Shown: piece by piece, positions 1 to 32,213 of the stretch
How the letters are laid out: the number at the start of each line of letters is the position of its first letter
How positions within the stretch are numbered: position 1 is the first letter of the stretch
From: an uncultured bacterium
Lineage (GTDB): Bacteria; CG03; SLGR01; JAGXOG01
DNA: 64,000 bases
Assembly (NCBI GenBank): GCA_964476445.1
Contig: CAYZAK010000001.1
Span: 83,271 to 147,270 of the forward strand
Reading direction: 5' to 3'
The notes under the pieces: model-generated
Told to the model about the DNA's origin: nothing
Database searches by the model: none
What the model saw: the letters and a program-made list of their open reading frames with translations, nothing else
Made by a program: the position numbers and the translations under genes

Positions 1-1639
1 CTCCCCATCTGTCTCCCCGCCAGTATTCCCAATTACCGGCACCATCGTCTTTTCTTAACTGTATTGCTACCTCACTTACTCTGGATCCGTAATTTGGATC
101 CCTGAAAGAACCCGTAAAAGTAGCAATCATTATATTATACGATTCTCCCCTGACCGGATAAACCATATCACTGTAAGGCGGAGTTATATCGTACCTGAAC
201 TCGGAATTGTAATTTTGGCTATTTAAAATATCGGTTTCCTCAACCTGCTCTTTATTAGGCTCCGATTTTACATCATCATAAGCCCTGACCCATATATTAT
301 TTACCAGTCCATCTCTCAAATTCACCCCGGTATAGGTCCAGGAAGAAGGATGCAATTCAGCTTCCACCCAGTTAATATCTTCCGTGGTCCATCCCTGTTC
401 TGTCCAGTAGTCCTCCTCATCCATCTGTATAACAAGTTCAACTTTGCTTACATCGGAATACTCATCAACTGCTGTTCCGTAAATAGTGAAAGTATGAGTG
501 GAGTCGTTTATCTGTTCGAATTCTCCCTCCATGGGGTACTCTACAAAAGATTCCGGAGTAGTGATATCGTAGATAAATGAAATACCGTTTTTTTCAGCGG
601 TGCTTTCCTGATTGCCGGCCAGGTCGGTCATTTTGGAAGTTACCCAATATTCCGAGCCGGCCGCTCCCCAATCTACATTGGAAGAATTCCAGCTCCAGGA
701 AGTAGTTCCTTCAACCAGGATCCAGTTTTCCTCTGCCAAGTCAAAATCAGTGGTTTCTGTATTATAATAATATTCACCGTTAAATATGGAAATACCCACA
801 AAATCCACTCCCTGGTCGTCGTAAGCAGACCCCTGGATTAAATCCATCTCATTGTAGTTCTGGCCTCCTCCTTCAGGATAGGTTACCGCCGAAACTCCCA
901 CTTGGGTATCGTAAACTATTCTATTCTTCAGAGGAGATTCAATATTTTGAGCTTCATCGTGAGCCCGGGTATATATCCAGTGTTCCTCCCCGTCATTCCA
1001 CTCGGCGGCGGTGGCGTCCCAAACCCATTGTTCGCTGGGAGAATCAAACGCTTCTCCTAACGGAGCCGCGGGATTCCAGATATAAGTTTCGCTTTCCTCC
1101 CAATTACCCTCACCGCTATGATTCCAGAAATAAGTAGTTCCTTCATCAATATATTTTAATGCTATATCAACTTCGGTTATGGCTGAAATTTCTCCCGCAT
1201 CCACCGCGGTACCTTCTATGGTGGGCTTCTCGTTTACATATTCCCCGTCCGGACTGCTTATTCCGGTCTCCGGGGGGGCATTATCCACCCAGAAATCAAT
1301 AGAACTTTCCACTGTCTCGGTAGAACCCAGAGAATCAAAAGACCTGGTCCACAGACGGTATCTTGCCGCCTGGGATTCTTCTTCCAGTCTCCACAGAGCA
1401 GGTACCCCGCCGGTCCACTCTTCGGTTCCATCCCGGGGACGCCAGTTTTCTTCGGCCACCCAGGAGCCTCCCCCTTCCCAGTATAGATCTTCATAGGCTT
1501 CGTCACCCTCCATATACCGGAGTTTTATTTGAGCTCCGGTAACTTCGGCCGGAGAGTATGCCAAAGCGGTTCCCGAAATATCGGTTAAAGGTTGAGTATG
1601 TAAACCAACATAGGGCATAGTTGATGCGGACACCGGTCG
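1..1639 (-). repeat. Trp-rich Ig-like repeat block 4 (4 full units + 1 partial)
   Basis: Units begin RPVSAST, DNAPPET, DTQVGVS, DITTPES, DITPPYS; same consensus as the other Trp-rich blocks. Confidence 0.8.
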
Positions 1640-22600: not shown

Positions 22601-25600
22601 CGCATCACTGAAATAAGCTCCCTTAATATCCACCTCCACCCCTTGGCTGCCCTGGCCTCTTGTGGTGGGACTTATAGAATCAACCCTCGGGCCGAGATTA
22701 ACTGAAAAAACATCTTCGCCAACGCCTACTCCGAAATCAGGATTAACAATAGTAACATCTCTGGCAACCGGAGATGCGTTTCCGTCAATATCCACCGTTA
22801 CCCTGAGTTCCTGATCGCTTTCAACGATAACATTCTTTACAGAAATGCCGCTTCCAAAATCAATATCCTCTTCTCCTATGCTTTGAAGGAAATATTCCCC
22901 TGTTAATACAATCTCCACATCTTCGGATCCCTGCCCGTAATTATCAGGCGATGCCGATGTTATTGCAGGTTTCGGTGTGATGGTCAAAAATTCGGGGTCA
23001 CTCTGAGTGGAGGTTCCCTCGTCGGGATTTGTAACCGTAACAGATGCCGCACCAAGCGCGGCATCGGGTGACACATTTACTGTCACATCAATACGGGATG
23101 AACTTATAAAATCTACATCAGTTACAGCCACATCACCGTCATCTTCATTTATAATTATATCTGCTCCTTCCTGAAAATTTTCCCCTCCAAGTTCCAGCGT
23201 TACGCTCTGGGCTCCCTGCCCGAGTTCGTAAGATTCGGCCGGCCAGGAGGCTCCCGTATTACAGGTCTCAAGCAGAGGAGGTTTATTAATAGTAAGCAGG
23301 GGATCTTCGGTAACATATTCCCCTCCGTCGGGGTTTAGCAACCGCAGATACCTGTCCGGATTTCCCCCGGGACTCCAGTCGGCTTCAGGCGAAACCGTAA
23401 TCTCTATATCCAGAGTCCTGCTGTCTGTATAAGTAATGGTAGTTACTGTTATACCCGGGTCTTCCGGGGACCCGGCGCTGTAAGTTGAAAAATATACTTC
23501 ACAACCCTCCTGGTAAGAACCCCACTCGGGCGCACGTATTCTTATTTCCCTGTCTGTTGCTCCTCTTGCCACATTATCAGGGGATATCCATTCAATTTCA
23601 GGATTTCTCCTTATTTCAATACCGTCTTCAAGAATATCCCATCCGAAATCGGGGTTTTCTATTCTCACGTCATACGTATCCACATCCAGTTCTTCTCCTA
23701 CATCAAGAAGAACAGTAAAAGATGAAGATCCATAATCATAATTGTAGCTGTGAAAATTATACTGACCCGAAGGAGGCCCCACAAGAGTCAGCACAGCTCC
23801 TTCTTTAAAACCGGGAGCCTGCACCACCATTTCTCTGTCATCGGCGCCACGGCCTATAAAATCGGGATCAAATTCCTGAAGTACGGGATGGGGATTAATC
23901 ATAACTCCGTCTGTAATAACGTAGTTACCCTGGTCGGGATTTACGATTATCAGATCGCTGTATCCGGTGCTCATATATTCATCAACGGTTATATCGCATT
24001 GAATTTTTGCCGGGTCTACGGAAACATTGGACAGAGGAATCCATTCTTCGCCAAAATATATTCTTAATCCCGAAACAAAATTATCACCCGTAATCTCAAC
24101 CGCCTGGCCGGAGGTCTGGGCGCGCTGGCCGAATTCAAACGGGACCGGCGAAACAATACTTATATTATCCGGCCGGGCACCTATTACAAAATATCCCGGA
24201 TCGTCTCTTGAGGCTGTTCCTCCGCTTACGGGATTTCTAACTGTAACCTCCCTGTCACCCACCGGGCAATCGTGATAAACATTTACAAGTACGTCAATCC
24301 TGCTGGAAGACCTCCAGTTAACAGTTTCAACCTCTATATGCGGCACGTCAAAAAAGACATCACTGGCGCTTATCCCGGTCTCAAAACCCGAGCCCCTTAT
24401 CCTCAGTGTTATCTCCCGGGCATTCTGCCCCAGCTGATTACTGGGGTTTGAACCCTCTACTGTCAGTTCATCGGGAGTAAGATAGGGAGGCTCAACTATA
24501 CTCAGCACGCTCACGCCCGAGATAAATATCCCTCCATCGGGATTCTCCGCTACAATCCACCTGTCTCCGAGATCCGCTTCGGCATCCACATTGAAATTCA
24601 CAAATTCCATCACATTCTGACTGAAACTGGTAAGCTCGCCGACATCTATTTTATCGTCAACAGGATACCCTGTCGAACTTTTTGAAAACCATATATCGAT
24701 TCCCTCCTGAAAGTACGGGCCGTCTCCCACAACCACCAGAGTTGACCCCGTCACACCCTGCGCCCTAACTTCAGGCGTAATGTAGTTTATATCCGGAGAG
24801 TGGGTGACATTGAAAAAATTGTTCCTGGTTACATAACCTCCATCCGGATTGGTTACGGTTACGTCTCTTAAACCCGTGGAAGTATACTCATCAATATTTA
24901 AAAGAACTGTTAAAGTTTCAGGATTGTAATCTACAATTTCCACCGATATACCGGAACCGAAATCTATTTCGCACCCGTCCTGAAAATTACTGCCATGCAG
25001 TGTAACTTGATAATCTTCAGCTCCCTGACCGGCTTCCGCTGGATCAAGGGATTCTAATCCGGGGGCACCAACCACATCAATCGCATCTGGAAGGGGATCG
25101 CTCTCCCCCAGGTCCTGGTTTATAATTTTAAGATCTTTGGGGCCCAGTGGACAGCCGTCATGTATTCTTACGGTAGCGTAAAGTTTGGTTCCCTCCTCCT
25201 CCACAACGGCATCTACCAGTTCAATCTCGTCATCCTCAACTCCAAAATCTAGCTGAATACGGCTCTCCACAAAATTCTGTCCTTCAATCTCCAGTGTAGT
25301 TTCCGAATAAACTCCTAGCTGAAGCGGCGTGGGCCACTCTGGGTGCACAATCTGGTTAATCACCGGTCTCGGGTTTACCGTCATCGAACCGAACCAGACG
25401 TAATAACCCCCGTTATTAATATTTCTTACATGTATATCACGGGGGCCGGCAGGACAGTCGCCGGCTACATCAATAAGGGCTTCAATGCGGGTGGCGTAGG
25501 TTTCAACACCCTTTACTTCAATATCCGCCTCTTCGTCGAACCAGACCTCCACGTTTCCGGACTCAAATCCCGATCCCGTTATTCTCAGGGTTTCATCAGT

Positions 25601-27313
25601 GGCTCCCTGGCCTATTTCATCACGGGGCCTGGACCCCATGATATTGATCTCATTAAGTGTGAGCCGGGGCGCCACTTCAAAACCTATTGGTGGAGATATA
25701 TCCTGTCTTGTATTTGTCTTTCCTCCATCCGGATGCCTGAGTTCAAGCTCCCAGTTGTCGGAAACCGGAGAAGCGGTAGATAGCACCGTAACATACAGCT
25801 CAAGAGTGTTTGCGCTTATACGGTTTTTATCCCTTATAATAACCCCGCCGTGCGGATCCGGGTGCTTAAGTTCGGCAATTACATCTTCTCCAATATAAGC
25901 TCCGTTTACTGTTATGGTAGACCACTGTTGAGAATCGAGAGGAACTCCTTGAGCCCGGCTTTTAGGATTAAAATCATATATCTGTGGGCGCCTGGTAATT
26001 GTAAACTCAGGACTGCGGCCGGGGGAGGAAATACCTCCGTCCGGATTTACCACCCTTACTCTTTCCGTTCCAATACCGGAATTTCGGGTTATCTCAACTG
26101 TTGCGGTTATGGTTCCCGGAGCGAGGTCGTAATTATAGTCATAAGCGAGCACACCTCCGTGTTCAAAATCAAGCGTCGCACCCGGCTGAAACCCGTGACC
26201 GTATACGCTGTAAGTGAAAGTCGAGGCGTTTTGACCGTAAGGCCCCTCGGTGCTTGCCTCGTATACCTGGGGAAGAAATCTGACGGGAACCTCCTGGGAA
26301 GCTCCTGCTCCGTCTATATTGACGCTTATATTTACCGTCCCTGTGATATTCGGGGCCTCAAAAAGAGTCCAGGAATTTTGCCAGACAGACGGCTCTGTTG
26401 ACGGTATATTGTAGTCATCCCAACCCTCAAACCTTATTTCACTCGAAGCGTTTCGGTCTCTAAACATTCCCCCCCGGATCTGGAGCATTATCGGTTCATC
26501 CGGAGTGCTTCCCAGAGTCTCGGTTATTTCTTCTTCGGCGGCATCAAGCACGCTGTATATGTAAGGCCTGAATGTCAGATTATCACTCCAGTTAAGGTAA
26601 GAGTTATTATCTCCCCCGGTATTGTTGTAATAAAAAGCCACTGCACCGCCGTCGCCGGCACTGACTATCTCGTTTTCCACTTCCAGGACCAGCCGGTCTC
26701 CATGATCAATCTCCAGATTTGGATGGGTCTCGGACTCACCGTCAATTATATTGGCCTGCCATCTGTTATATGAACCCTCGCCGCCTGTCTCAGTTTCCGA
26801 CATCGGGCTTTCTCTTATTATCCATTCATTTTTCCGGCTTCCATCGCCCCGCGGCTCAAAATATTCAGTAGAAAGCCAGTTCCTCCTCCATAAATAAATG
26901 TATGCGTTTGCCCTGTGCTGGGGCATTGCATCCTGGTCGTCGTCACTTCCGGCTATTCCAAAACATCCTCGGAAGGTCCAATTCGTTGCATTATATATGG
27001 TCTGTGCGCCATCCAGAGGCGGGGAGACAAAAACACCCATATTATAGTAATCCCCATCAGCTCCCACACTAAATCTATGCTCCTGCTCTTCACTTCCCTG
27101 CCCTATGGTCATAGGATAGGCTTCGCCACTTGCATATTCACGGTCATAATATATACGTCCCCGCGGACTGTTTGGCCTGGGGCCTCTTTCAAAACCGTAA
27201 ACCCCTCCGCTTCGGGGATAAATCGTGTCCGTCTCTATGCCGTCAGCGAAAACCGAGCCGGCGGACAAAATAAGCACAAATATTATGTTTAACAGCGTTT
27301 TATACATCTTCAT
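1..27313 (-). CDS. Giant secreted/surface repeat protein, at least 9,104 aa, 3'-partial (continues beyond position 1)
   Basis: ATG at 27313-27311 overlaps the TGA of the upstream gene (ATGA). N-terminus MKMYKTLLNIIFVLILSAGSVFA-DGIE is a Sec signal peptide. Hand translation stayed open down to position 2 (ends ...GAGNWEYWRGDRWG). Frame checks at 26564, 13508, 8099, 3644 and 1640 agree. The ORF track lists no fragment of this frame, as expected if it has no stop inside the window. Confidence 0.95.
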   Translation of the reverse strand, partial: MKMYKTLLNIIFVLILSAGSVFADGIETDTIYPRSGGVYGFERGPRPNSPRGRIYYDREYASGEAYPMTIGQGSEEQEHRFSVGADGDYYNMGVFVSPPLDGAQTIYNATNWTFRGCFGIAGSDDDQDAMPQHRANAYIYLWRRNWLSTEYFEPRGDGSRKNEWIIRESPMSETETGGEGSYNRWQANIIDGESETHPNLEIDHGDRLVLEVENEIVSAGDGGAVAFYYNNTGGDNNSYLNWSDNLTFRPYIYSVLDAAEEEITETLGSTPDEPIMLQIRGGMFRDRNASSEIRFEGWDDYNIPSTEPSVWQNSWTLFEAPNITGTVNISVNIDGAGASQEVPVRFLPQVYEASTEGPYGQNASTFTYSVYGHGFQPGATLDFEHGGVLAYDYNYDLAPGTITATVEITRNSGIGTERVRVVNPDGGISSPGRSPEFTITRRPQIYDFNPKSRAQGVPLDSQQWSTITVNGAYIGEDVIAELKHPDPHGGVIIRDKNRISANTLELYVTVLSTASPVSDNWELELRHPDGGKTNTRQDISPPIGFEVAPRLTLNEINIMGSRPRDEIGQGATDETLRITGSGFESGNVEVWFDEEADIEVKGVETYATRIEALIDVAGDCPAGPRDIHVRNINNGGYYVWFGSMTVNPRPVINQIVHPEWPTPLQLGVYSETTLEIEGQNFVESRIQLDFGVEDDEIELVDAVVEEEGTKLYATVRIHDGCPLGPKDLKIINQDLGESDPLPDAIDVVGAPGLESLDPAEAGQGAEDYQVTLHGSNFQDGCEIDFGSGISVEIVDYNPETLTVLLNIDEYTSTGLRDVTVTNPDGGYVTRNNFFNVTHSPDINYITPEVRAQGVTGSTLVVVGDGPYFQEGIDIWFSKSSTGYPVDDKIDVGELTSFSQNVMEFVNFNVDAEADLGDRWIVAENPDGGIFISGVSVLSIVEPPYLTPDELTVEGSNPSNQLGQNAREITLRIRGSGFETGISASDVFFDVPHIEVETVNWRSSSRIDVLVNVYHDCPVGDREVTVRNPVSGGTASRDDPGYFVIGARPDNISIVSPVPFEFGQRAQTSGQAVEITGDNFVSGLRIYFGEEWIPLSNVSVDPAKIQCDITVDEYMSTGYSDLIIVNPDQGNYVITDGVMINPHPVLQEFDPDFIGRGADDREMVVQAPGFKEGAVLTLVGPPSGQYNFHSYNYDYGSSSFTVLLDVGEELDVDTYDVRIENPDFGWDILEDGIEIRRNPEIEWISPDNVARGATDREIRIRAPEWGSYQEGCEVYFSTYSAGSPEDPGITVTTITYTDSRTLDIEITVSPEADWSPGGNPDRYLRLLNPDGGEYVTEDPLLTINKPPLLETCNTGASWPAESYELGQGAQSVTLELGGENFQEGADIIINEDDGDVAVTDVDFISSSRIDVTVNVSPDAALGAASVTVTNPDEGTSTQSDPEFLTITPKPAITSASPDNYGQGSEDVEIVLTGEYFLQSIGEEDIDFGSGISVKNVIVESDQELRVTVDIDGNASPVARDVTIVNPDFGVGVGEDVFSVNLGPRVDSISPTTRGQGSQGVEVDIKGAYFSDALTHDDVWFSGTRIDVTDVPFVAVDGSSMTVVIDIAHNASTDTARDVTVRNPDMGMDTIEGAFTVGLKPEIYECDPDALGAGALDQIIEVTGEGFQSGLEAYFSLSSLGDTEDNQISIGDISGDGDVITFSNVDVDPEAEIGPRYLVVINPDGGRAVSDEPVFEVTLAPVIQAISPNRLGQNASNITLNISGLNFQEGIGYGNVTFEPSSGITKHEVNRISEDSIQVRVSINAEADPGFRNVRVENPDQGADVDEDGFQITPRPRFHYASPDAAGQGAQNRIIEIHGTGFQTGMEALFGGDGISPNPAGASGSSTEMSVTISISTDATAPSERSIRLEDPDYGYSIVFDTFTINRAPSVTQLSPSSLGQGAQQREIIVQGSNFQDGITPEDISFSHGGDGIEVTNVEYQSPSEITLTVNVPHGCTAQTGDITIVNPDGGIKTETGIFTVNPAPDVTEIVPSQLSQDMYDEEINIYGSGFDVPGNISREVSFGTTTIETISVSYISDSQLRAYINILSTAGAQDYDITVVNRDGGVTTVTNGFTVSDKPYISHLNHPERGRGALEQDMRIYGGAFQEGSTVTISGEGLTLSTTTRIGSGELQVTLSITYGADLGPRDVTVVNPDGGTYILEDGFTVGDSPATAIGAPWKSRHNDTLTHSTGTVTTDAEKVYLSLKRLSDERWFRAGSGFVSTSEEWIEAAYTTGEEVWEYSMPLGELQHGTSYYIRTYGHGTNAGREQPGSGVTFIYDTEAPEVSITRPVHLAHYNDGSGEIDNRLNQIFGTAEEGTEKIELRIRDQDSELFWDGSDWVSQDQFFDVNAIDPSNWSYSISTANWIDGHSYNVRVRATDIAGNISTPGTGRTFRMDFQVPVTEVLNPEDEGIYNELTVISGSVNDEPGIGEVTMVQIYIQRQSDDFYYDGTEWQNSIEWIDVTSFDQEEWHYNVVEGTFDDGYYEIKVRAQDRAMNLECSDDGTSKPESVFFTWDETPPVTSVVFPEEDDIISDPDMVVEGTWSDPHGIDRIEICIENTDTGRWWTGGSWTDHSEQWVSSEDFANFEIYDGTWSYSGIPWLSGEHRIRTRGSDIVGNIEEPGPARGFMFDATAPDVNIVSIPEDGGWYNDVLTHFQGETADDEHGTGVDSVSLKIQDLSRGTTFWTGTSWVNDPSEDTWAEVSPPLGIWEYPVPPLEHGHVYSVTPRAEDVAGNVSYGSTNMFYYDIESPSSFITTPDDGQYGVISMVEGYSFDSPQDMDGHGVVEIYIYNETDEEYYTGSGNQWDSQMQWLEASWGSWMSAYSFRRWHYELPELSHGKEYTVVSRATDDAGNVEETHPEITFTYNENIPYSLITLPRDGTIIDGNISLVRGEVLNLSEESLSGVDVSIVRGEISGSEKVYYRWDWAEEEWVEVSGTVSYYHWAGADYPAGDRHYFEVDVSGINFDEQEAVYRIYSRARTQSYSESAGRGTAFEIETGFPLTWPDSPVHGDYLSEIEEITGLGAGNIPAQVQVSVQKVAVPEELDVYDENQEDEYWRWTHDEWQSTVYWLDADLSGIEGDWNWSLDVSESGPEGEIDWIHGYYYRIRSRARDINETHTGGTLIMVDRVDPVSEILYPSPGTFKDILTISGTAMDKDSGIAQNGIEVQIRYEDGGTIYYWDEDAGEFSSTTDNRWHSGVCDSAVGGSTVTWTFDASNLNNEFQHGIEYQLLSRATDRAGNVEDPPVEGPQIICDREGPDSVITSPPTGRIINFFTESYDISGTANDALSQVEQVEIQVKRGANYLQDDYSWDAEDNWLQTEYELGEWNISLTTDCWVNDHSSTITVRAIDNLGNIGPAQSSIWFIFDDEPPESEVLKPDGLHNYNDSDHDITDMIYGTVTDNQQVRDVYVRIQRGALDQYWNAEIEDWEEDEDSWNRAQVWSSSWTFTDIPSWVDNWEYRVWSYAVDTATNTESIPGNTYSFIYDSIPPESSVTVPDEDSFWSSSPQLQGASYDGGAGVYDVRALLKYTEGGQSFYWDSVGWAETETPQWISVEEPLSEWHVDPGDLPDEADFTPGRIYRAVSRARDERGPASPRYLNVENYEENWNEFIWDPAPPESEAVYPLNDGLIAEDAFIEGTAHDETGAMEDIPGEMVKTGKVEAVYVRLKKIDGGSEYWWDNTSSPSVWTTDPVWAETQLSPDATSWVLSDSPQWETLEDDYEANIRALDAAGNWETDFSTVSFAADFIPPETEITVPIHGNDYDTLDVIRGTAEDNYENIPTRGMNYVELMIVRDSDGYTWNGDSWSSGGNDWIETDVVSEGPLHWEWEYDLPGVIWESGEYYTVISRGVDKALNIETEEETGKNQNTFRFVAPAETFKISMDLSDSDTTDVQAGEELTIQVEAYNITEEITAMGYRGTVYFNLGGPAGVAGVVPSSYTFTAEDDGIKTFSGEVSTETTRFFSANTGPYPTADGDIYLEVYDDDTYAEPISTRAYVNVYPSALSRFTFQENWANTRAGESRTLTIEARDDFGDMEGGYGNIKHDYLGVVRFASNDPLISRGDGLPEDYEFQESDYGVVTFTEGFIFRRANIGEGNETEKWHVSARDQTVPGSESFYENLVVEPDMLDSFLVVTDTGPQIAGYEGQAASITVSAVDEFLNLLSSGTYEYTGEVEFTSSDTQAELPASPYSFTGEDNAHVEFETSVILKTAGEHWIRVRDEEREREGLQEGIEILPAPASYFRLSVSTDATAGEYNDIVIEALDPYGNRDVNFESLDDNDEGIKLSGTGGFMTNVSHDIVDFYAANNGISTYTAVVAFTEAGTGREITATNIVDQEPVGISETIDGIRVFNAEPDHFTVDRISPEPPIAAGTTMETFRVWIRDEFGNRCQNPPYLGTVEFASSDEQAVFNPETFEYTEEHGGRREFPDLFTLKTLGDQDIYINSMEGPDVIGSTIAITVVPAEHDGFRVETSTIQTSGERYSTRVESIDEYGNIVTDYTGSVRFDSDASDFDFIPFEYDFQEEDQGIREFRSIDGEGIRFSTRGVYYLRVYDFESPAKDGIKEDVFVTDRPVSTVTFPEDGDYINELTPPAIEGTHWDDEEVVEVKVKIQRVSNMFFWNEDAGEWQENEFLNEAEVHESSWTYAGEGINWISGNDYRIMSRARDNRGNYEIDYSTITFLFDSTPPETSFTHPEDGGHRNEPFLVSGTAMDYPAGFDSGLAQLRLQITHQRPGDPATYYWDTPDWVTTESTLYPPAGEEWVYDTMPNWQEGYLYHIYAWHSDHAGNVEDIKSVSFIYDETPPESTISKPDSDYESDKTLEKIWGTAEDLPAEPYYSAGVDRVQVRISSGTGTEIFWDGSSWQHMDPGQAWQEAEWWGSSWTYTSLEGAFEDGITYNVNARAIDRTTSDGITGPNVEVDFSTRTFIYDTIAPETVMERPEDNNTYEMMPEIYGTASDTPPGEVDYVEIRIRQTAGGDFTGMMWDWQEDEWSSSPQQEWSDGITPDGESWSISTSGVSWQATAEGVQYETEFRATDRAGNVEETKSHTWYYSSPFPTTVINTPSGTELNPNYYRSPSQISGEADEYTYENETYVLISSGPTYGTYWDNDSGQWSDTEVWNQVDTPTGEAPYSWYLSVDQSVWIDGTMYNIRSKGVGPAGEESPGSGRYFIIDQTDPTASVQEPAAGAHHQSVSRISGIAEDPSGEAWGYELGKIGEVHITIQDTEDNYYQQGGDWGAGEHWIPVQPIDGTFDSLSEEWYWDVDYPTAVWEDDGQYFIRSRARDHVQPSPNTGSSGLSELIIDTIPPTSGITEPYEEYYNALPQIMGTGADTPPGEWYDIDIMIRRTPGTTRYWDGGGWSISKETLSDEDDEDLIIYSSSWTYSDISWASGYEYRITVRGKDRSGNIETSTQTAEFVYDNRPPVTGGDQPSDGGYYNELLEITGTAQDDSSGQELVSGIEDVEVAYRKSEGTTGYWTQEDWTGQSSEGNWWTAFYSAGNWTEEVENPFADEDSPPDDGQYQVIIRALDKAGNWQTEFSTVTFTWDLTPPGFSDVSPSTSATINSMDVGLTLDEKMQVGPTRVVFEAQSGWNEEVEGSTYTAILNEAQGEDLEFQTIPWDQFDGELIDGNRYTLRLEGQDLAGNFDDGSWYFSDMIYDTTRPQSKFTYPYKYDHSTMSIISGTAEDPPPTAGSFFAGVEGTEVRIFRDYGEGSQESWDGESWDSGSHWLSAEGTESWQYEVTVTTAFEHNREYRVETRAYDSAANTQTVPTAHLFMMDTVPPEGLIEFPEPDEYYNTMTDISGTAADDLSGISVDGVKLRIRKSDSPIYYWSGTDWVLDEVWVEASFSVEDWSFESGPGASALGEYDDGTPFEVLAMISDDAGNTYTAPAVTFYNDTAFPSAEITNIESGQYYNPNTLVDIEGEASGEPSGIYSVEVVVEAEDEYWNPATESWQGDEIIWIPAESTTADTYETWKVGGINWLDGIPHHIWMRVTDKAENRTVYDTESDSTIENIQDYYVRFTYDETPPDSLVDFPENNKYYNIQYGTVTGQAFDPLPGSGVSRVRILLQRASDDQWWRGTYWGGERTMTVDFFDPDWEFYISPEARSVFYENPEEEYFIYTYAEDYAGNIEDLTAKTTFYYDVVPPTSTVELPETETEEEYYTAGDEVDTLIHGGQYDGYSGIDKVEVKISSGNNYWTGSVWTEEEQYSAINAQLHTSSWTYTDVPVWEDDVLYEITSRALDVAGNVGETPVTKRFQYDISEPESFVEMPVDGQGYEMMDEITGTALDATSGVDEVEVAIRENFGDLRHWDTQTGDWVSGTVFSTMVFSGGKWRFDSSGVPWQDDSDYRIRLRATDNVGITETNITNESQSVFTYYKPAVDFEFVRPDGTELDGEVTAGSTVPFKLTALNEDGNPAKWYQGTVEFSVAHEEYDTAPTSYTFTTADEGSRIFEGNVSSTALNFVYRDASSWVRAEDSDDEDLFKVQNIDVKWAPAQKIQLTGVPAYQVAGEIQSPVVEIFDGQWGDWGNPVEDFDGEVTFESENYPYETDMPGNYNFDGIEGGEHEFTDQLELKEKNQDTGWQVNARIVGTSIENDQYVIVNPAGIDHFILTGLPDPFEAGAESGITVEARDEFENTKTDYQGTISFDTDDVHEEVNFPDDYTFEPEDSGVHNFEGLTVTDTVRLITSGSRYVRVEETAFGVWMGTRTVTVEPSAVEAFEVSMTTQITAGVVQNITVEAVDEFGNLQTDYTGTVVFDSDNENFESLGPGEISDGYQEFTNWVTLKEASDPLTQRFEVTVEDGNNNLGSQEGIMVEAAVAEKLTVDYPGQVDAGSPNTAGVSVRDEFNNIVYDWSGEVTFHTGGTDDTATVDGFAVPVELTLTEGSENYTAIYRSAGVNQELWAYAGGLSSGTRTGITVDAGELEQFGVKLGGLSEDNAVSINRPVDITVEAQDEFDNVVENYVSTVTFASEDILADLPGPSNYTEDDDGVKTWPGGAVFNSSNTAEGWKITVTDDNDATKTGESVNVRVLLPPDTSVDMPYDGYRSWSLDSTSGTAVPHHEDYAEVTKVEMRLYCESGGDREGQYWRGGISWGAERWRELDYNSQEQVFYSEDLPSWDNLDVDGNAIYRFYFRAYDSLKGTETVRGPYRFYTDRGLPESEITSHSHGENYSSIDLIEGTAKDPGEFSNITNVQIQISYIDEGTTYYWNQSIQSTTTASYWNDTTEATGDGFGISPVVDWYFNAENVAWQNQKEHKIRTRSVDDAANVEEPVYEIAVTYDTDTPVSDIDVPAEGEVRNELEVISGTAFNEFGVDKIDVRIEKDGQYWTGSGWGGEEWLEGASGNWGDSAVSWNFSIPGEPFDENTQYQLTSRAEDTAGNVEDAGDLTEVIFIYDTLAPTATVTSVYDGDAVNWSFEGIEGTAYDTNEVELVQVALRRDPGAWWDGTAWSTDFEDMKWIDGQTADNYENWNLPQIDWENGRMHQVWMRVKDEAGNKEVYDSDVSQHIEANQGSLLSFRYDESTPTAWVDYPKNEASHNDMVEPLTGAAEDYPSPNSGVSDVRIKIQRSSDGNYWDGEVWGGDISMYADYGAGSWEYGISETDIGIFYENNEETYYIYSRARDNAGNIEPWEIKSVYHYDVVPPTSTINYPDEGEYYTSGEPEEIRGEMHDGYSGVDFVKLQISSGSYNWTGSSWTTAEVRVETQMFTSSWTYTTLSGAWADAGAYEVKTYVKDEAGNVQISTPSVTFIYDDSEPYSYLNTPVDGAMYESMDVVRSTGADDLSGLDTVDMAIRQDFSPYYWWDASGSTWTEVQTYNPTTQSGEFFELDTSTIQWEDDRYYNVYARAVDNVGLQESDPSSSRFRYVKPVTHLSLELIDGTDLDGQFTVAGDDMDIQVRALNEDGTVALGYTGEITFYTTEDSEEAKLPDNYTFTLNDEGLAEFPAGLNLKKSGDWQVTVSAVDPEGPASDSNTVTVENASIEKVRLDLYEGSQTETAGDELSPRVRIYDGQWGEWGNLVLDYEGTVEFAFISDEDTQATLPSTHTFTTGEGEDNGDRTFTEEMVLRTTAEEGWTVRARDTANPGEWYGDMTIAVDPAGIDNFVLTGLPDPYRAGTSTGIVVEARDEFNNRKTDYTGTVTFDTDDEHEGVILPADYTFSTGTLADNGLHVFEADYDTTTVRLITAAENRVVRIKDTDYTPWMGEDQIEVIAGERVNYEVSMSTDIDAGADYDITVRAVDEFGNLDTGSSDPVQFFTNNPVGYYSLPTAGQNLVEGERTFTDGVTLNRSSWTTEGYINDPWYVEVRHIDHPSPEIDGRQPGIKVNPAETSQFRVTGIQATLAAGEEDAFYVIARDEYGNRDINYSNTVTFTSDNTDWTVAPGTFTYSTSTERGLNLFTVEFRESGDNFSLRAFQSDPYDETIEGHQYPISVEPASLDSLSLSGIADPQRVDYETSGVLVQAVDQFGNIFENYTSTVSFNAPTSDIQVSPEPYNFVLEDEGESEFEVKMMTPGEHDVQVYDINDPDIYGWQDGITVATRPVSASTMPYVGLHTQPLTDISGTALAYSPAEVTGAQIKLRYMEGDEAYEDLYWEGGGSWVAEENWRPRDGTEEWTGGVPALWRLEEESQAARYRLWTRSFDSLGSTETVESSIDFWVDNAPPETGISSPDGEYVNEKPTIEGTAVDAGEISAITEVDIALKYIDEGTTYFWNHSGEGNWEESETYIWNPAAPLGEAFDSPSEQWVWDATAAEWNDGEEHWIYTRAHDEAQNIESPLKNRIVYDTQVGVSAVTYPEGGGQNYNEMDLIQGSAYDDQGVDFVGISIFNGEYYYNTETTDFDLAEENWILVEGTTSWSWNSSNVDWGAAGSEYWVTSKMTDLAGNQESTAEKNGISFIYDITTPESFVEYPMEGEFEQINDSTHTFTIYGTAVDEYSDVSKVELVIQMDEEDYWTEQGWTTEDINWVEAELHPSSWTYTGVNLRDGLVNNIWVRAYDDVKSEPNKEQVEETDILNSQNYNSEFRYDITPPYSDMVYPVRGESYNIMIATFTGSFRDPNYGSRVSEVAIQLRKDDGAGNWEYWRGDRWG
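1640..3646 (-). repeat. Type-B Ig-like repeat block 3 (6 units)
   Basis: Six ~100-115 aa units, e.g. AGIDNFVLTGLPDPYRAG..VEARDEFNNRKTDYTGTVTFDTDD..LPADYTF. Confidence 0.8.
3647..6146 (-). repeat. Trp-rich Ig-like repeat block 3 (7 units)
   Basis: Units begin PPDTSV, DRGLPES, DTDTPVS, DTLAPTA, DESTPTA, DVVPPTS, DDSEPYS. Confidence 0.8.
6147..8101 (-). repeat. Type-B Ig-like repeat block 2 (6 units)
   Basis: Six units with A-x-D-x-F/Y-G/x-N...Y-x-G-T-V-x-F motif. Confidence 0.8.
8102..13510 (-). repeat. Trp-rich Ig-like repeat block 2 (15 units, one Trp-poor variant at ~10262-10597)
   Basis: Units begin DRPVST, DSTPPET, DETPPES, DTIAPET, SSPFPTT, DQTDPTA, DTIPPTS, DNRPPVT, DLTPPGF, DTTRPQS, DTVPPEG, DTAFPSA, DETPPDS, DVVPPTS, DISEPES. 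Confidence 0.8.
13511..15592 (-). repeat. Type-B Ig-like repeat block 1 (6 units)
   Basis: Consensus AG..v.v.A.D.FGN....Y.G.V.F.S.D...LP..Y.F...D.G...F, e.g. VESIDEYGNIVTDYTGSVRFDSD..FEYDFQEEDQGIREF. Confidence 0.8.
15593..20692 (-). repeat. Trp-rich Ig-like repeat block 1 (14 units)
   Basis: ~115-130 aa units: DxxPPxSxIxxP...IxGTAxD..SGVxxVEVxI...YWxGxxW...W...WxY...WxxGxxYxIxSRAxDxAGNxE...FxY. Confidence 0.8.
20693..26569 (-). repeat. 20 tandem IPT/TIG-like repeats
   Basis: ~90-105 aa units with P-x-I-x-x-x-x-P..GQGA..v.I.GxxF.xG..v.F....R.V.V.NPDGG, e.g. APSVTQLSPSSLGQGAQQREIIVQGSNFQDG...ITIVNPDGG. The first unit is more divergent. Confidence 0.8.
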
Positions 27314-28890
27314 AATGCTATGACCACATATTTTCTTATGAAGTATAAAATCACGCCGTAATAAAGTATGCTTATATAAGAAACATAAGCAGCTTTATGC
27401 TCAAACCTGTAGACTATAAATGCCGCCGTCAGGCCCAACACTCCGGCGGCAATATACAGCATACTCAAACCCGTCAGTAACGGAACAACCATAAAAGCGC
27501 TAAAAATAACCGGGGGAACAATATGCCTGCTTAGCTTTTTTCTGTACCTTAAAATTCCTGCAAGTGTAAAACCTAAAAGAGCCGCTTGCCACAGAGGGCC
27601 GGGCAAAAGGTGGACCGCTTCCCTGTCTGCAAGCAATCCATATCCGGTAAAGAAAGAAAACATGTATGTAAGAGCAATAAACAGATCAGAAATTATAGGT
27701 ATCCGTTCTATCTTAAGAGGCGGAAGCATTATAAAATAAAAAAGAAGAATAAATACGATAAGATAAAGCAGGCACCAGTAAGTGGTGTTGATAGCAGCAA
27801 ATATTGCCATAAAAAGGAAAATTGACGCTATCAGCTTCTGCTCTCCGAAAGAGGCCCATTTTAAAGACCGGTCAGATCTTTTATTAATAATCCCTTTTAC
27901 CGTGCAGATATGTAAATAGGCAAAAAAGACAGCCAGGGCAAGCATTACGGAAGCAAAGTAATCTATCGGATTCTGAAAGGCGTGGGGCAGCACATTTTCC
28001 ATTCTCCAGATTCCCATAACAATCCCGGCAACCGTGAGTGCTGCATAATTTAAACCTTTTGACCAATTAATATTTTTAATCCAAACGCTAAAATTTTTCT
28101 TTCCAGCATATATTCTAAACCATATTAATAGAAAAATCGTTATCATAACCATAAGCAAAATTCCGGTTATCTGGGTATTGGTGTGTACTAAACCGGGTGT
28201 TCCCATAAGCTTATCGCCAAGCGAAGCCCCAATTAATTCCTCAGGAACATATCTGCTAAATATGGGAAATATTCTGTATATAGGCCCAACAGTAACAACG
28301 TGAAGGAAACCTAGTAGTACAACAAAACTGAACTGACTCATTATCCAGCCTGATACCGCTTTTAAAATACTTTGGGTTTTTATATATATGTAAGTTGCCA
28401 CACCGATACAAAGAAAGAGAGCCTCTAACCGTTGTCCGATTGAGTGCCTTTCAAATTGGTAGAAAGGGTTAAAAATGTTTATGAGTGCTGGGAGTATTTC
28501 CGAAAATTCGGTTCCGTACTGTAAGGGATATCCTCCAACGGTAACATAATCCCATAAGGGGACAATCCAGCTCACAATCCAGAAAACAATAACTATTTTG
28601 GATATTTTGAGGATATTTTCCTTTGTGAGAAGATATATTATGCAGCAGACTATCAGATACATTTCAATGTGAGCAAGTGCGTATGCGTTAAATATCTTCA
28701 ATATGGAAAAAAACTGAGGATAAGACGGATGGGTTTCGTGTCCTATTGTGTGGGTCCAGGCAAGCCCGTCACCAAAATTTCTCATCAGAATTACTACGGC
28801 AAAGAAAAGCAGCCACCAGGCGGTACCCGCCGGGTTATTTTCAACGGGTTCAATAATTTTTTCCTTTATGCAGTTAATCATTATCTCCAA
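27310..28890 (-). CDS. Multi-pass membrane protein: unknown N-terminal membrane domain plus catalytically degenerate UbiA-like C-terminal domain
   Basis: Many hydrophobic segments. The C-terminal ~260 aa align by eye to the 288-aa UbiA two genes upstream but lack both Asp-rich motifs. Confidence 0.8.
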   Translation of the reverse strand: MEIMINCIKEKIIEPVENNPAGTAWWLLFFAVVILMRNFGDGLAWTHTIGHETHPSYPQFFSILKIFNAYALAHIEMYLIVCCIIYLLTKENILKISKIVIVFWIVSWIVPLWDYVTVGGYPLQYGTEFSEILPALINIFNPFYQFERHSIGQRLEALFLCIGVATYIYIKTQSILKAVSGWIMSQFSFVVLLGFLHVVTVGPIYRIFPIFSRYVPEELIGASLGDKLMGTPGLVHTNTQITGILLMVMITIFLLIWFRIYAGKKNFSVWIKNINWSKGLNYAALTVAGIVMGIWRMENVLPHAFQNPIDYFASVMLALAVFFAYLHICTVKGIINKRSDRSLKWASFGEQKLIASIFLFMAIFAAINTTYWCLLYLIVFILLFYFIMLPPLKIERIPIISDLFIALTYMFSFFTGYGLLADREAVHLLPGPLWQAALLGFTLAGILRYRKKLSRHIVPPVIFSAFMVVPLLTGLSMLYIAAGVLGLTAAFIVYRFEHKAAYVSYISILYYGVILYFIRKYVVIAL

Positions 28891-29858
28891 TCAAGTTTTC
28901 TCTCTTCTGCTTCCCGTATTCGTTCTATGCTTTCAATACGGCTATCCAGTGTTTCTCTGTAAACATCCCCACGTGAAGGCACATATTTGTAGCTTTCCCT
29001 GTATATCTCTTCTGCTTTTTCCAACTCGCCTTTTCTCCTGTAAACATCTCCCAGAAGAAGACTTATCCCCGGGTTATCCGGTGATATTTCAAGCGCATCA
29101 TAAACAATACTCAAGGCCCTCTCATACTCCTCGGCACTCAGCATTGAATTAGCCAGGTACAGGTGGATAACTGCCGTTCTGTTACCTAATTCTTCATTTT
29201 TCAGGATTCCTTTAATGTATACTTTCTCCGCCTCATCATAGTTTTCTTTCCGGGCATGAAAAAACCCCAGGTAAATGTATCCCTTAAGAAAATCCGGATT
29301 TTCTTCAACAGTTCTCTTCAAGTTTTTTTCCGCATTTTCAGAGTCATCCAATTTCATGTGCGTATGCCCAAGCACGAAATAAGCAATAAATTTATCGGGG
29401 TTTCGGGATATTGCTTTTTCAAGTACGGAGAGCGCGTCATCATTACGATTAGCTCTGGCGTATGCATCACCAAGCATCACTTTGGAATAATAATTGCCGG
29501 GAATTGCCTCATTTAGTTGTTCGGCAAATTCAAGAAGCTGCTCAAATTCGGAATCCATCGACGCAGCCCTGCTTAACGTCTCCCTTGCTTCATCAGGATA
29601 GTTTAAAATGTAGTAAGAGTACGAAAGAAGATAAACAGGAACAGCGTTTTCCGGCTCATCATCCATCCATTCTTCCGCTAAATCTTTCAGCATATCGAAA
29701 TCTTCTTTTTCATAAGCAGCAGATACTTTTTGCAGGAGATTTTCGTCAGCCAAACCGGAAGTGCTTAAAGCAAGGCATATAAAAACAATAAGGATAAAAT
29801 ATTTAATTATAATTGCGTAGTTTCGCACAGAAATTGTTTTTTTATAACTGTTCCTCAT
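28881..29858 (-). CDS. Exported tetratricopeptide-repeat protein
   Basis: Signal peptide (..LALSTSGLA-DE). TPR units such as AYFVLGHTHMKLDDSENAEKNLKRTVEENPDF and ISLLLGDVYRRKGELEKAEEIY. Confidence 0.88.
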   Translation of the reverse strand: MRNSYKKTISVRNYAIIIKYFILIVFICLALSTSGLADENLLQKVSAAYEKEDFDMLKDLAEEWMDDEPENAVPVYLLSYSYYILNYPDEARETLSRAASMDSEFEQLLEFAEQLNEAIPGNYYSKVMLGDAYARANRNDDALSVLEKAISRNPDKFIAYFVLGHTHMKLDDSENAEKNLKRTVEENPDFLKGYIYLGFFHARKENYDEAEKVYIKGILKNEELGNRTAVIHLYLANSMLSAEEYERALSIVYDALEISPDNPGISLLLGDVYRRKGELEKAEEIYRESYKYVPSRGDVYRETLDSRIESIERIREAEERKLDWR

Positions 29859-30721
29859 ATAATTCCTCCGTACATAAGCTCACTTCTTAAAAATAAAAAC
29901 ATAACTGCCGAATAAACATAATAAGTTACAAAATACGGACCTTCGTCCCACTTTTTTTTAAGAAGCCAGTAAACACCAAGCACGGAACCCGCAATGGAAA
30001 AGTAATAAAGAGCGGTGATACCAAGAATTACAGGTACGCTAAAATAAGCCAGTACGGTAAGCATAATAATCATAGCGCGTGCCAATCTTTCGCCCATGAT
30101 CGTCGGAATAGTTTTTATACCCTCAACCAAATCTCCTTCTCTGTCTTTGATATCTTTAATATTTATAGAAAACATGAAAACCACAAATATCATAATTGCC
30201 ACGCGATGCGGAAATAATTTGGGCGTTTCATAGCCTGCTATTACACTGAATCCGGCAACCACAGCAATCAAAGCATTAAGAGCTATTACTAAAGTGTTTA
30301 GGGGGAAAAAACGTTTTAACCGAAAAGGCGGCATGGAATAAAAAACTGCTGATATATAGCAGCATAAAATAAGAATTAAAGGAACAAGCCCAGCCAGATA
30401 ACTTAAAATAACAGAGACAAAGAAACAAAATAGCCCCCACTTTTTATAAATAGAAGCGCTTACCTTCCCTGTCAGTAACGGGCGATCCGGGTTAGAAACC
30501 CTGTCTCCATTAATATCATAAAAATCATTAAAAACGCAGGCAGCCTGGAAAGCAAATATTATACCTGAAAAAAGAAATATTATTCTCATTAAATATTCAC
30601 TAAAACTTCCCTTAACGGCGGGATGCCAGCAGGCTATAAAAGCACCGCCTAAGACCAGTCCCGAATAATGAACCGAACGATACGGCCTCATATTTTTAAT
30701 GAGCACTTTTAAGTGACTCAT
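29855..30721 (-). CDS. UbiA-superfamily prenyltransferase (DGGGP-synthase/chlorophyll-synthase-like motifs), substrate unknown
   Basis: Both Asp-rich motifs intact: NDFYDINGDRVSNPDRPL and NIKDIKDREGDLVEGIKTIP; YSMPPFRLKR; ~9 hydrophobic segments. Confidence 0.92.
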   Translation of the reverse strand: MSHLKVLIKNMRPYRSVHYSGLVLGGAFIACWHPAVKGSFSEYLMRIIFLFSGIIFAFQAACVFNDFYDINGDRVSNPDRPLLTGKVSASIYKKWGLFCFFVSVILSYLAGLVPLILILCCYISAVFYSMPPFRLKRFFPLNTLVIALNALIAVVAGFSVIAGYETPKLFPHRVAIMIFVVFMFSINIKDIKDREGDLVEGIKTIPTIMGERLARAMIIMLTVLAYFSVPVILGITALYYFSIAGSVLGVYWLLKKKWDEGPYFVTYYVYSAVMFLFLRSELMYGGII

Positions 30722-31404
30722 CTTAACAGTTCTCCTCTTTCTCTTGTCTCTTCAACCCTCCTTAACCCTCTCAAAGCGGCGTTTTTAACAGTTGGTTCTC
30801 CTTCATCCGCCGCTTCTGTCAAAGCTCTCTCAATCCTGACGGTATCCCCATCGTCAGGCGCCCCCGATATAAGCATCTCTGCAAGCGAATCAAGGGCAGC
30901 TACCCGAACCCGGGAACTTTCATGGTCTTTGGCTTTTTCAACCAGGATATCAAGCACTTCCTCTCCCCCGCTTCTTCCCAACGCTCTTATAGCAGCTGGT
31001 CTTGTGTTTTCATCTCCTTCAGCAACTGCCTCTACAAGGGCTTCCACGGCTTTTTTCTCACGGAACCCGCCCAGTGCCTGGGCCGTCATTATCCTGACCG
31101 CAGCGGACTGATCGGAATTTAAAGCATTCAGCAGCGCCGGCAGGGCGCTTCTGTCCCCGATCCGACCAAGTGAAACTGCAGCATGTAACCTTACTCCGGA
31201 AGAGTTGTCCTCAAGCAAAGCTATTAACTGCGGAAGGGATTCCCTGTCAAGTTCGTTGCCCAGGCGCTGCGCTTCCCTCATCCGGACAACCGGGTCGGTG
31301 CTGGATAAAAGAGTGTATTCCGCCCAAAGAACAGAATTAACAGTTATTGCGAATATTGCCGCAATAACCGTAACTTTAACTAACTTATTAATTTTTTTAA
31401 TCAT
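30718..31404 (-). CDS. Exported HEAT (PBS-lyase-like) repeat protein
   Basis: Signal peptide (..VNSVLWA-E). Repeats such as DNSSGVRLHAAVSLGRIGDRSALPALLNAL. Confidence 0.88.
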   Translation of the reverse strand: MIKKINKLVKVTVIAAIFAITVNSVLWAEYTLLSSTDPVVRMREAQRLGNELDRESLPQLIALLEDNSSGVRLHAAVSLGRIGDRSALPALLNALNSDQSAAVRIMTAQALGGFREKKAVEALVEAVAEGDENTRPAAIRALGRSGGEEVLDILVEKAKDHESSRVRVAALDSLAEMLISGAPDDGDTVRIERALTEAADEGEPTVKNAALRGLRRVEETRERGELLR

Positions 31405-31535: not shown

Positions 31536-32042
31536 TTATTCTAAAAAGACGGGAACCCTGAATCTGGGCTCGTCTAAGGTAGGTAGGTTTCCCTTAAAAG
31601 TTAAAACTGTGGTAATAAAAATCAGGGGGAACCCTAAAAAGAAAAAAGTGCTGTTAGTACCGGAATGGGATAACAACCTGAAAAATTCTTTCATTGAAGT
31701 GTTTGGGCTGTAAAATAGAGTAATCGCCGGAGAAGGAAACTCAAAATTGGGAACATGGTTTAAATTTGCTTCCACCGGGGTTAAAGGTCCGCGACGCCAC
31801 CTGGTCGAACCGGCCGGGCTTAAAATATTGTAAATTTTTGAAAACGCGGTCTGTTCAAAGACAACTGCGGACTCTACCGGCCGGTTGTTTTTATCCCTGG
31901 ATTCTACCCTCATAAAATGAGAGGTGTCGCCGCCGGGAATATTTAAAACCCGGGCCTGGAGCTTTTGCCCGCCGGATAATCCTCCGATCATTATGGAGGT
32001 CAGCGCGAATATTAAAGTTATTTTTTTTATCTTATTATTCAT
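31536..32042 (-). CDS. Hypothetical exported protein with hydrophobic C-terminal segment
   Basis: 168-aa ORF with signal-peptide-like N-terminus and FFFLGFPLIFITTVL near the C-terminus; first gene after the riboswitch terminator; no recognised family. Confidence 0.6.
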   Translation of the reverse strand: MNNKIKKITLIFALTSIMIGGLSGGQKLQARVLNIPGGDTSHFMRVESRDKNNRPVESAVVFEQTAFSKIYNILSPAGSTRWRRGPLTPVEANLNHVPNFEFPSPAITLFYSPNTSMKEFFRLLSHSGTNSTFFFLGFPLIFITTVLTFKGNLPTLDEPRFRVPVFLE

Positions 32043-32127: not shown

Positions 32128-32213
32128 TCCTACCGGTAATCCAGCCCTCCGGATGTCCCGGAGCTGTGATTTTGCGAGCCGCCCGTTACCGAACGGTTGC
32201 CCTTATCAGCGGA
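32128..32213 (-). promoter_or_regulatory. Cyclic di-GMP-I (GEMM) riboswitch aptamer
   Basis: RNA UCCGCUGAUAAGGGCAA-CCGUUCG[GUAA]CGGGCGG-CUCGCAAAAUCACAG-CUCCGG[GACAU]CCGGAG-GGCUGGAUUACCGGUAGGA. P2 has a GNRA loop; GCAAA linker; UUACCG 3' motif; P1 UCCGCUG/CGGUAGGA. Positions equivalent to Vibrio Vc2 G14-C93, G20, A47 and C92 are all present. Confidence 0.88.

Follow-up and report, generated by a model that had tools for sequence, protein, structure and literature searches.

The subject of this analysis is an operon in a 64,000-nucleotide stretch of DNA from an uncultured bacterium (GTDB lineage Bacteria; CG03; SLGR01; JAGXOG01; NCBI GenBank assembly GCA_964476445.1, contig CAYZAK010000001.1, positions 83,271 to 147,270 of the forward strand), hereafter the window, in which all positions are counted from its first letter. 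The operon encodes two UbiA-related proteins on the minus strand: a standalone, motif-intact UbiA prenyltransferase of 288 amino acids (aa) (29855..30721; Pfam PF01040) and a 526-aa fusion protein (27310..28890), in which a novel N-terminal membrane domain is joined to a UbiA-fold domain without catalytic residues. The N-terminal domain (N-domain; aa 1–262; 28105..28890, minus strand) consists of six long helices and several short ones; the C-terminal pseudoenzyme domain (C-domain; aa 263–526; 27313..28104, minus strand) was assigned with hhalign and Foldseek. We regard it as probable, taking all parts of the explanation together, that the decayed fused domain acts as a scaffold, that the free UbiA works in trans and that its product is used in the periplasm.

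A sequence-only reading of the same DNA had proposed, from alignment by eye, that the C-terminus of the 526-aa protein is a true UbiA homologue. Direct comparison of the two window proteins is suggestive: BLASTP aligns residues 265–487 of the fusion with residues 2–250 of the free enzyme at 22% identity over 259 columns (38.9 bits, E = 1e-7), a result that is weak for transmembrane proteins, and the identity found in direct comparison is 17–22%. Pfam and NCBIfam returned zero matches for the 526-aa protein, even at E ≤ 10 and with its halves scanned separately. Two independent tests settle the question. The alignment of four C-domains of the motif-dead clade matched that of seven standalone orthologues in hhalign with a probability of 99.2% and an E-value of 9.2e-20, over 250 columns and end to end. 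An AlphaFold2 (AF2) model of the whole 526-aa protein, built on a 60-sequence alignment (pLDDT 92.5, pTM 0.92), was compared with the PDB using Foldseek, and ranks 1–13 were all UbiA-superfamily structures (probability 1.0; TM-score normalised to target length 0.45–0.60). The top structures are DGGGP synthase (6M31/7BPU), AfUbiA (4TQ3-6) and ApUbiA (4OD4/5), and the phosphoribosyltransferase 8J8J stands at rank 15. The C-terminal half of the 526-aa protein is therefore homologous to UbiA over its entire length. In addition, the window's 288-aa UbiA matches C-termini of other members of the fusion family with up to 193 bits (P0010), forming a chain of intermediates, and the three segments and both motifs that had been aligned by eye recur column for column in the family alignment.

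The residues on which UbiA chemistry depends are missing from the fused domain. In the 288-aa protein, the first Asp-rich motif (N65-D66-F-Y-D69-I-N-G-D73; 30503..30529, minus strand) and the second motif region (N187-I-K-D-I-K-D193-R-E-G-D197; 30131..30163, minus strand) are intact, and N65, D66, D69, D73, D193 and D197 are invariant in seven orthologues. In the fusion, as had been suggested, the family alignment finds both motifs degenerate: the position of the family's N-D-x-x-D-x-x-x-D is occupied by KGIINKRSD (K332, N336 and D340; 27871..27897, minus strand), and the second motif is reduced to RYRKK within R-Y449-R-K-K452-L-S-R (27526..27549, minus strand). After the latter, about 19 residues are deleted in the window protein as well as in its relatives P0002 and P0003; the deletion takes out the EGDxxxGxxTLPxxxG stretch of the family, that is, the L6-7 loop. 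Of the five scored acidic residues a single one survives, and only in some alignments. The equivalents of AfUbiA N68, Y139 and S140 are lost as well (N332 to K, Y387 to I and S388 to M). Scored for column conservation against alignment A2 (58 members besides itself), the window fusion keeps 7 of 10 highly conserved columns in the N-domain and 7 of 22 in the C-domain. In AfUbiA, for which the roles of the loop and the motifs have been described, the lost residues are those that bind Mg2+ and diphosphate or stabilise the intermediate (PMC4106721). Because the Asp motifs, the conserved Asn, the Tyr–Ser pair and the L6-7 loop are all gone, the fused UbiA domain should no longer be able to bind Mg2+–prenyl diphosphate in the canonical manner.

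The sequence-only reading had also raised the possibility of a frameshift. No Asp-rich motif is present in any other frame of the fusion region, an independent JGI soda-lake contig (L015; 92% nucleotide and 94% protein identity) carries identical dead motifs, and Logan contigs from three runs have no indels in the fusion C-domain; these checks rule out a frameshift or an assembly error. The dead motifs also occur in P0002 (67% identical) and P0003 (53% over the C-domain), and at least four independent assemblies and lineages carry the fusion open reading frame (ORF) uninterrupted. In the comparison with P0002, the N-domain has a ratio of nonsynonymous to synonymous substitution rates (dN/dS) of about 0.09 and the C-domain one of about 0.22; both figures are rough because dS is saturated. 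Identity is 74% over residues 355–445 of the fusion, and to P0002 it is as low as 35% over the last 80. From the dN/dS values, together with the weak identity over the last 80 residues, the dead domain appears to be relaxed yet still constrained by purifying selection.

The fusion belongs to a large family, for which an exhaustive HMMER search was needed: a word-indexed homologue search gave P0002 as the only relative, and the same type of search with a 60-sequence profile gave almost nothing beyond it. The family comprises 340 cluster representatives (clusters at 50% identity), mostly of 520–550 aa and aligning from end to end, in which an N-domain of about 260 aa and six helices is followed by a nine-helix UbiA domain and often by TPR repeats. 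Taxon labels include Elusimicrobiota, Planctomycetota, Eisenbacteria, Edwardsbacteria and others, and the database name of the members is merely 'UbiA family prenyltransferase'. When the window's 288-aa UbiA was compared with the best 150 of the 340, nearly all matched in their C-terminal half, with E-values of 1e-20 to 1e-59; low scores were obtained for the window fusion (15.8 bits), P0002 (7 bits) and P0003 (8 bits). The positions of motif 1 (N-D-x-x-D-x-x-x-D) are present in 116–131 of 151 sequences and the aspartates of motif 2 in 122–131 of 151, and at least four of the five scored acidic residues are kept in 128 of 151 (about 85%). Fusion of the N-domain to an intact UbiA, which the sequence-only reading had posed as a question, is thus the norm. 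About 20 members have lost the acidic residues, and motif decay appears to recur across the family. Members of 750–950 aa carry an added C-terminal TPR region, on intact as well as dead UbiA domains, and match both UbiA and TPR in Pfam. Since the TPR region is fused at the C-terminus in these long members, the window's free-standing TPR gene is best regarded as a split form of the same module. A literature search found no paper with both UbiA and pseudoenzyme in its full text and none on the fusion family, and a preprint on giant genes leaves prenyltransferases unmentioned.

The 288-aa protein matches PF01040 with 116 bits (cut-off 34.2) over profile positions 20–227 of 250 and can be taken as a bona fide member of the UbiA family. 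Its closest relatives are standalone proteins of 281–331 aa with 44–59% identity, labelled Elusimicrobia or Elusimicrobiota, and the next closest are the C-domains of the fusions P0010, P0006 and P0005 (35–37% identity). In neighbour-joining trees, bootstrap support is 94 of 100 for monophyly of the standalone clade and 98 of 100 for its nesting among fusion C-domains, where it is the sister of the P0005/6/11/12/16 group; in the N-domain tree the window protein lies near P0002, P0007, P0004, P0005 and P0006. Because the standalone UbiA branches inside the UbiA domains of the fusion family, the most economical history would have the fusion as the ancestral form and the free enzyme as a derived duplicate: the UbiA domain of a fusion gene would have been partially duplicated, and catalysis then lost in the fused copy. 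An intermediate stage is found at locus L004, where the gene directly upstream of a 537-aa fusion encodes a standalone UbiA; the UbiA domain of this fusion scores 290 bits and matches Pfam, with motifs (N-K-I-F-S-Y-K-N and I-K-N-L-K-S-D) that lack the Asp residues of the family; duplication would therefore have come before, or alongside, decay. The claim that an intact paralogue shares an operon with the dead fusion agrees with this nesting and with the tight overlap of the genes described below. The taxon labels of the metagenome-assembled genomes (MAGs) that hold the orthologues at L006, L007 and L008 (52–59% identical), namely Sumerlaeota, Elusimicrobia and Planctomycetia, are mutually inconsistent.

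Modelled alone, the N-domain is predicted with a pLDDT of 86.8 and a pTM of 0.88, and its near-invariant residues E17, R37, P111, D114, Y125, G152 and Y167 are all retained in the window protein. Foldseek against the PDB gave a best probability of 0.12 and TM-scores of at most 0.26, with no GT-C chain among the 50 best matches listed. Neither the N-domain nor the whole protein has a meaningful sequence match in the PDB, no Pfam family was detected in the 33 N-domains scanned, and the window N-domain has no NCBIfam relative. The idea that the N-domain arose by internal duplication of UbiA was rejected (hhalign probability 0.2), and so was its identification as a GT-C, Lgt, CarS, exosortase or flippase, with no Foldseek match and no conserved Cys or His.

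The UbiA domain starts in the cytoplasm, carries its Asp motifs on the cytoplasmic side, has nine helices and ends outside the cell (PMC4106721). Reading the topology backwards through the AF2 helices from this orientation, we infer that R37, D41, P111, D114, Y125, G152, R154 and E156 lie at periplasmic helix ends. Kyte–Doolittle transmembrane prediction, which gave too low a helix count, was left out of this argument. A TPR region placed C-terminal to six plus nine helices would therefore be periplasmic, in agreement with the signal or anchor on the separate TPR protein of the window. Given the pTM of the whole-protein model, rigid packing between the UbiA-fold domain and the N-domain is predicted.

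All ORFs that the sequence-only reading had placed on the minus strand here (526 aa, TPR 325 aa and UbiA 288 aa) are present. For the longest of the three, the reading frame stands and the length probably does not: the listed TTG start (28879-28890) is probably wrong, and an ATG at 28881, which gives 523 aa, is the likely start because it has a GGAG Shine–Dalgarno sequence upstream, overlaps the TPR stop codon in TAATG and yields the length found in the database copy P0001 and in relatives. All of the following elements lie on the minus strand. The likely leader of the operon is a c-di-GMP-I riboswitch aptamer (32132..32211; Rfam RF01051 with 45.4 bits, above the gathering score of 35, full length over model positions 1–87), which lies 90 nucleotides upstream of the first gene; no clear expression-platform terminator was identified. 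This gene encodes a small signal-bearing protein of 168 aa from no known family (31536..32042), 48% identical to a 160-aa protein at L004. It is followed by a 228-aa HEAT-repeat protein with an N-terminal signal-like segment (30718..31404), which is kept beside UbiA in relatives, then by the 288-aa UbiA and by a 325-aa TPR protein with an N-terminal hydrophobic signal or anchor (28881..29858). The fusion gene is followed by an open frame for a giant secreted Ig/TIG-repeat protein (1..27313), which exceeds the start of the window and encodes more than 9,104 aa within it. The giant protein is acidic, has a signal peptide and contains IPT/TIG, Big_13, Big_7 and Big_3_2 repeats; its orthologues include a 17,658-aa protein at L001 (52% identity over 3,000 aa) and the product of the gene after P0003 (43%). 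Start and stop codons overlap by 4 nucleotides at HEAT/UbiA, 4 at UbiA/TPR, 1 at TPR/fusion (TAATG, provided that the fusion starts at the ATG at 28881) and 4 at fusion/giant (ATGA). A promoter scan performed no better than on shuffled sequence, a terminator scan gave no clear operon boundaries, and no flippase or GT-C is recognisable in the operon, nor does a MATE- or GtrA-like flippase gene adjoin it. Exported HEAT-repeat proteins are unusual. A second one, also with a signal-peptide-like start, is encoded at 32348-33280 (minus strand).

The scan of genomes with the standalone-UbiA alignment gave four loci, most of them on short contigs, and that of metagenomes gave one. The gene order small secreted protein, HEAT, UbiA, TPR, dead fusion and giant recurs in soda-lake and Elusimicrobiota-type MAGs, and the 168-aa, HEAT and TPR proteins have orthologues in these loci. 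At L004 the order is UbiA, motif-dead 537-aa fusion, 160-aa protein, HEAT and giant. L007 and L013, two contigs of one Elusimicrobia MAG, together give UbiA, TPR, dead fusion and the N-terminus of the giant, whereas L001 and L015 have radical SAM, TPR, dead fusion and giant. In a Spirochaetia-labelled MAG (L009:9974-19750), a free UbiA (30% identical) is found with prepilin-like genes, a TPR-like protein of 632 aa and an N-domain protein of 447 aa; all that the C-terminus of the latter retains of UbiA is a faint trace of the first helices (hhalign probability 41%), and the locus looks like another split or decayed variant. At every locus long enough to show one (the window, L004, L007 and L009), a UbiA of the standalone clade is accompanied by an N-domain gene. 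No free UbiA and no giant gene lies near the intact fusions P0005, P0006 and P0007. Their small neighbours were also considered as a source of a conserved extra partner, and none is common to them.

In relatives, two to four genes for B12-binding radical SAM proteins lie between the UbiA and TPR genes (L015:1-2348, L005:1696-7479, L006:2103-3982, L008:2809-4122 and L001:2-538). Because these genes adjoin UbiA, they hint that the prenyl product may be further tailored in those relatives. No such gene is present in the whole 64 kb of the window. The 92% nucleotide identity between the window and L015 breaks off at 29672, within the 5' part of the TPR gene; this suggests a deletion or recombination at this point.

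In the scheme that we favour, the dead domain would serve the N-domain as a structural scaffold or lipid-binding module, and the free UbiA would provide the prenyl-transfer step in trans, in the same operon-encoded pathway; the two-domain pTM of 0.92 is in keeping with this. More tentatively, a polyprenyl-linked intermediate may be formed at the inner membrane face and then used at the periplasmic one, with the N-domain as its possible user on the outer face. The TPR and HEAT proteins could then present an exported acceptor, most plausibly the downstream giant Ig/TIG protein, and the whole operon might be under the control of the c-di-GMP riboswitch. Synthesis on the inner face and use in the periplasm are suggested by the cytoplasmic sites of UbiA, by the N-domain residues at the outer helix ends and by the signal peptides on the TPR, HEAT and small proteins. 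Two relatives point in the same direction, P0033 through its coupling to a polyprenyl-phosphate GT2 and P0014 through its position among surface proteins tailed for the type IX secretion system (T9SS). P0033 (L017:8423-18455, on the 99.7-kb contig GBSed_10000319) has a dead UbiA domain and a fused TPR region, and its gene shows translational coupling with those for an AglJ/ArnC-like polyprenyl-phosphate GT2, an epimerase and a nucleotide-sugar dehydrogenase. Three paralogous lipoprotein-like genes of 256–257 aa flank it, and LptC/LptD, Kds and other lipopolysaccharide genes lie nearby, as does a PMT_2+TPR GT-C. P0014 is an intact N-domain–UbiA–TPR member (L020:4328-13034), encoded in one operon with T9SS C-terminal-tail proteins and a Kelch/FlgD_ig (Ig) surface protein.

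Several points weigh against this scheme or parts of it. The interaction of the free UbiA with the fusion protein is a proposal. No free UbiA adjoins the dead, TPR-fused members P0033, P0039 and P0057 of other clades, and a free UbiA is therefore not an obligatory partner of the dead domain. The best NCBIfam models for the 288-aa UbiA are a generic prenyltransferase and DGGGP synthase, all far under their cut-offs, and Foldseek detects no similarity between the N-domain and GT-C, other transferases or flippases. The proposed topology draws modest positive-inside support from its short loops, with 6 Lys and Arg residues on the proposed cytoplasmic side against 3 on the periplasmic side. The AF2 model of the fusion rests on an alignment made up mostly of intact members. 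As for the history of the genes, the five UbiAs taken as an 'outgroup' fell outside in 0 of 100 bootstraps, so that the direction from fusion to free copy depends on rooting. The saturation of dS and the low identity over the last 80 residues, given above, belong to the same account.

Other explanations differ chiefly in what they make of the decayed domain and of its neighbour. The C-domain might not be dead but neofunctionalised, with an activity or ligand independent of the Asp motifs, such as binding or translocation of the polyprenyl product, or a new site. We consider this unlikely: the dead clade does have strongly conserved motifs of its own (among them GLLADREAVHLLPG and GIWRMENV), purifying selection (dN/dS of about 0.2) and the well-kept segment at residues 355–445 would suit such a role, and several clades keep dead domains with no UbiA gene beside them, but packing against the N-domain, as predicted at a pTM of 0.92, accounts equally well for the conservation. 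Moreover, the domain shows no evident new constellation of conserved acidic, His or Cys residues, and the loop that caps the cavity has been deleted. Less probable again is that the two proteins have independent functions, the 288-aa UbiA belonging to an unrelated lipid or quinone pathway and the fusion working through its N-domain alone. The derivation of the standalone clade from inside the fusion family, the constant company of an N-domain gene, the overlapping start and stop codons and the absence of a free copy from intact-fusion loci all speak for a common function, even though the best models of the UbiA are generic or DGGGP-synthase-like, the radical SAM genes after UbiA in relatives suggest a pathway of isoprenoid-lipid tailoring, and other dead fusions have no UbiA next to them. 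Finally, that the resemblance of the C-domain to UbiA arises by chance from transmembrane composition, or that the fusion is a decaying pseudogene or an assembly artefact, is hardly credible: the Pfam and NCBIfam models are blind to UbiA in the 526-aa protein and direct identity is low, but the hhalign E-value, the intermediates and a top Foldseek list of UbiA structures only stand against chance, and an ORF intact in at least four assemblies and lineages, a dN/dS below 1 and the lack of a motif in another frame stand against decay or artefact.

The part played by the fusion itself could be that of a flippase, an acceptor-binding protein or a transferase, as the sequence-only reading had suggested. 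A bolder proposal, which we hold to be doubtful, makes the N-domain a new class of periplasm-facing transferase or translocase that depends on a polyprenyl carrier, an analogue of GT-C with an unrelated fold. Together with TPR as its acceptor-binding module, it would covalently modify (glycosylate or lipidate) giant Ig/TIG surface proteins. The lipid-linked donor would come from the cytoplasmic face, as the product of a UbiA that is either fused or split off, or of a GT2 in its stead.

Compared with the UbiA superfamily (PF01040; AfUbiA 4TQ3, ApUbiA 4OD5 and DGGGP synthase 6M31/7BPU), the 288-aa protein is an ordinary member in its fold and both Asp motifs, whereas the fused C-domain shares the fold but lacks the N/D/D/D of motif 1, the D/D of motif 2, the Tyr–Ser pair and the L6-7 loop, and is preceded by a domain of about 260 aa that is absent from described UbiA enzymes. 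Inactive partner subunits are familiar from soluble and cis-prenyltransferases, in the small subunit of geranyl diphosphate synthase and in NgBR/Nus1, which pairs with DHDDS; 3QKC, a structure in the Foldseek list of the fusion model, presumably belongs beside these. There, too, an inactive paralogue is kept beside an active enzyme. Those subunits, however, are of another superfamily and fold, whereas the inactive copy described here is a membrane domain fused to another domain, and its heteromer with the free enzyme is putative.

In one type of three-component periplasmic glycosylation system (PMC11127046), a polyprenyl phosphoribose synthase of the UbiA type works with a flippase and with a GT-C transferase that has a substrate-binding domain; in Arn/Gtr systems a polyprenyl-phosphate GT2 takes the place of the UbiA-type synthase. 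The logic is alike, in that a lipid-linked intermediate would be formed at the cytoplasmic face and a periplasm-facing membrane protein would work with a substrate-binding module, here the TPR protein, and P0033, a distant member of the family, is coupled to an AglJ/ArnC-like GT2 and sugar-nucleotide enzymes. However, the window N-domain has no similarity to GT-C, the operon has no recognisable flippase and the UbiA is not specifically phosphoribosyltransferase-like. These systems offer the closest functional analogy, and no more than an analogy. TMTC1-4 and TMEM260 are eukaryotic TPR-bearing GT-C O-mannosyltransferases that act on cadherin and IPT/TIG domains. Like them, with a polytopic enzyme and lumenal TPR acting on Ig/TIG proteins, the window operon brings together TPR and a giant TIG/Ig protein, but no relationship of sequence or fold was detected.

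No UbiA-superfamily pseudoenzyme was found described in our literature search. The locus and its relatives form a series from an intact fusion, through a free enzyme with a motif-dead fusion, to a strongly decayed fusion and a remnant, and this series would illustrate the conversion of a membrane enzyme domain into a scaffold. They also expose a large family with a conserved N-domain, the fold of which is confidently predicted and unmatched in the PDB and Pfam; the N-domain may prove more novel than the UbiA-fold pseudoenzyme itself. Its recurrent link to TPR and giant surface proteins may bear on how adhesin-like giants are processed, anchored or decorated, apparently under c-di-GMP.

Public runs that contain the window sequence are soda-lake and salt-lake metagenomes, and no RNA runs with the locus were found. 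The rest of the window looks like ordinary chromosome, with Mfd-like, MetRS, holB and tmk genes. The segment 44001-50000 has a GC content of 0.33–0.36, compared with 0.43–0.50 in most of the window; its genes (MetRS, PSP1, holB-like, tmk and class II aldolase) are of the housekeeping type, and the segment does not resemble an island.

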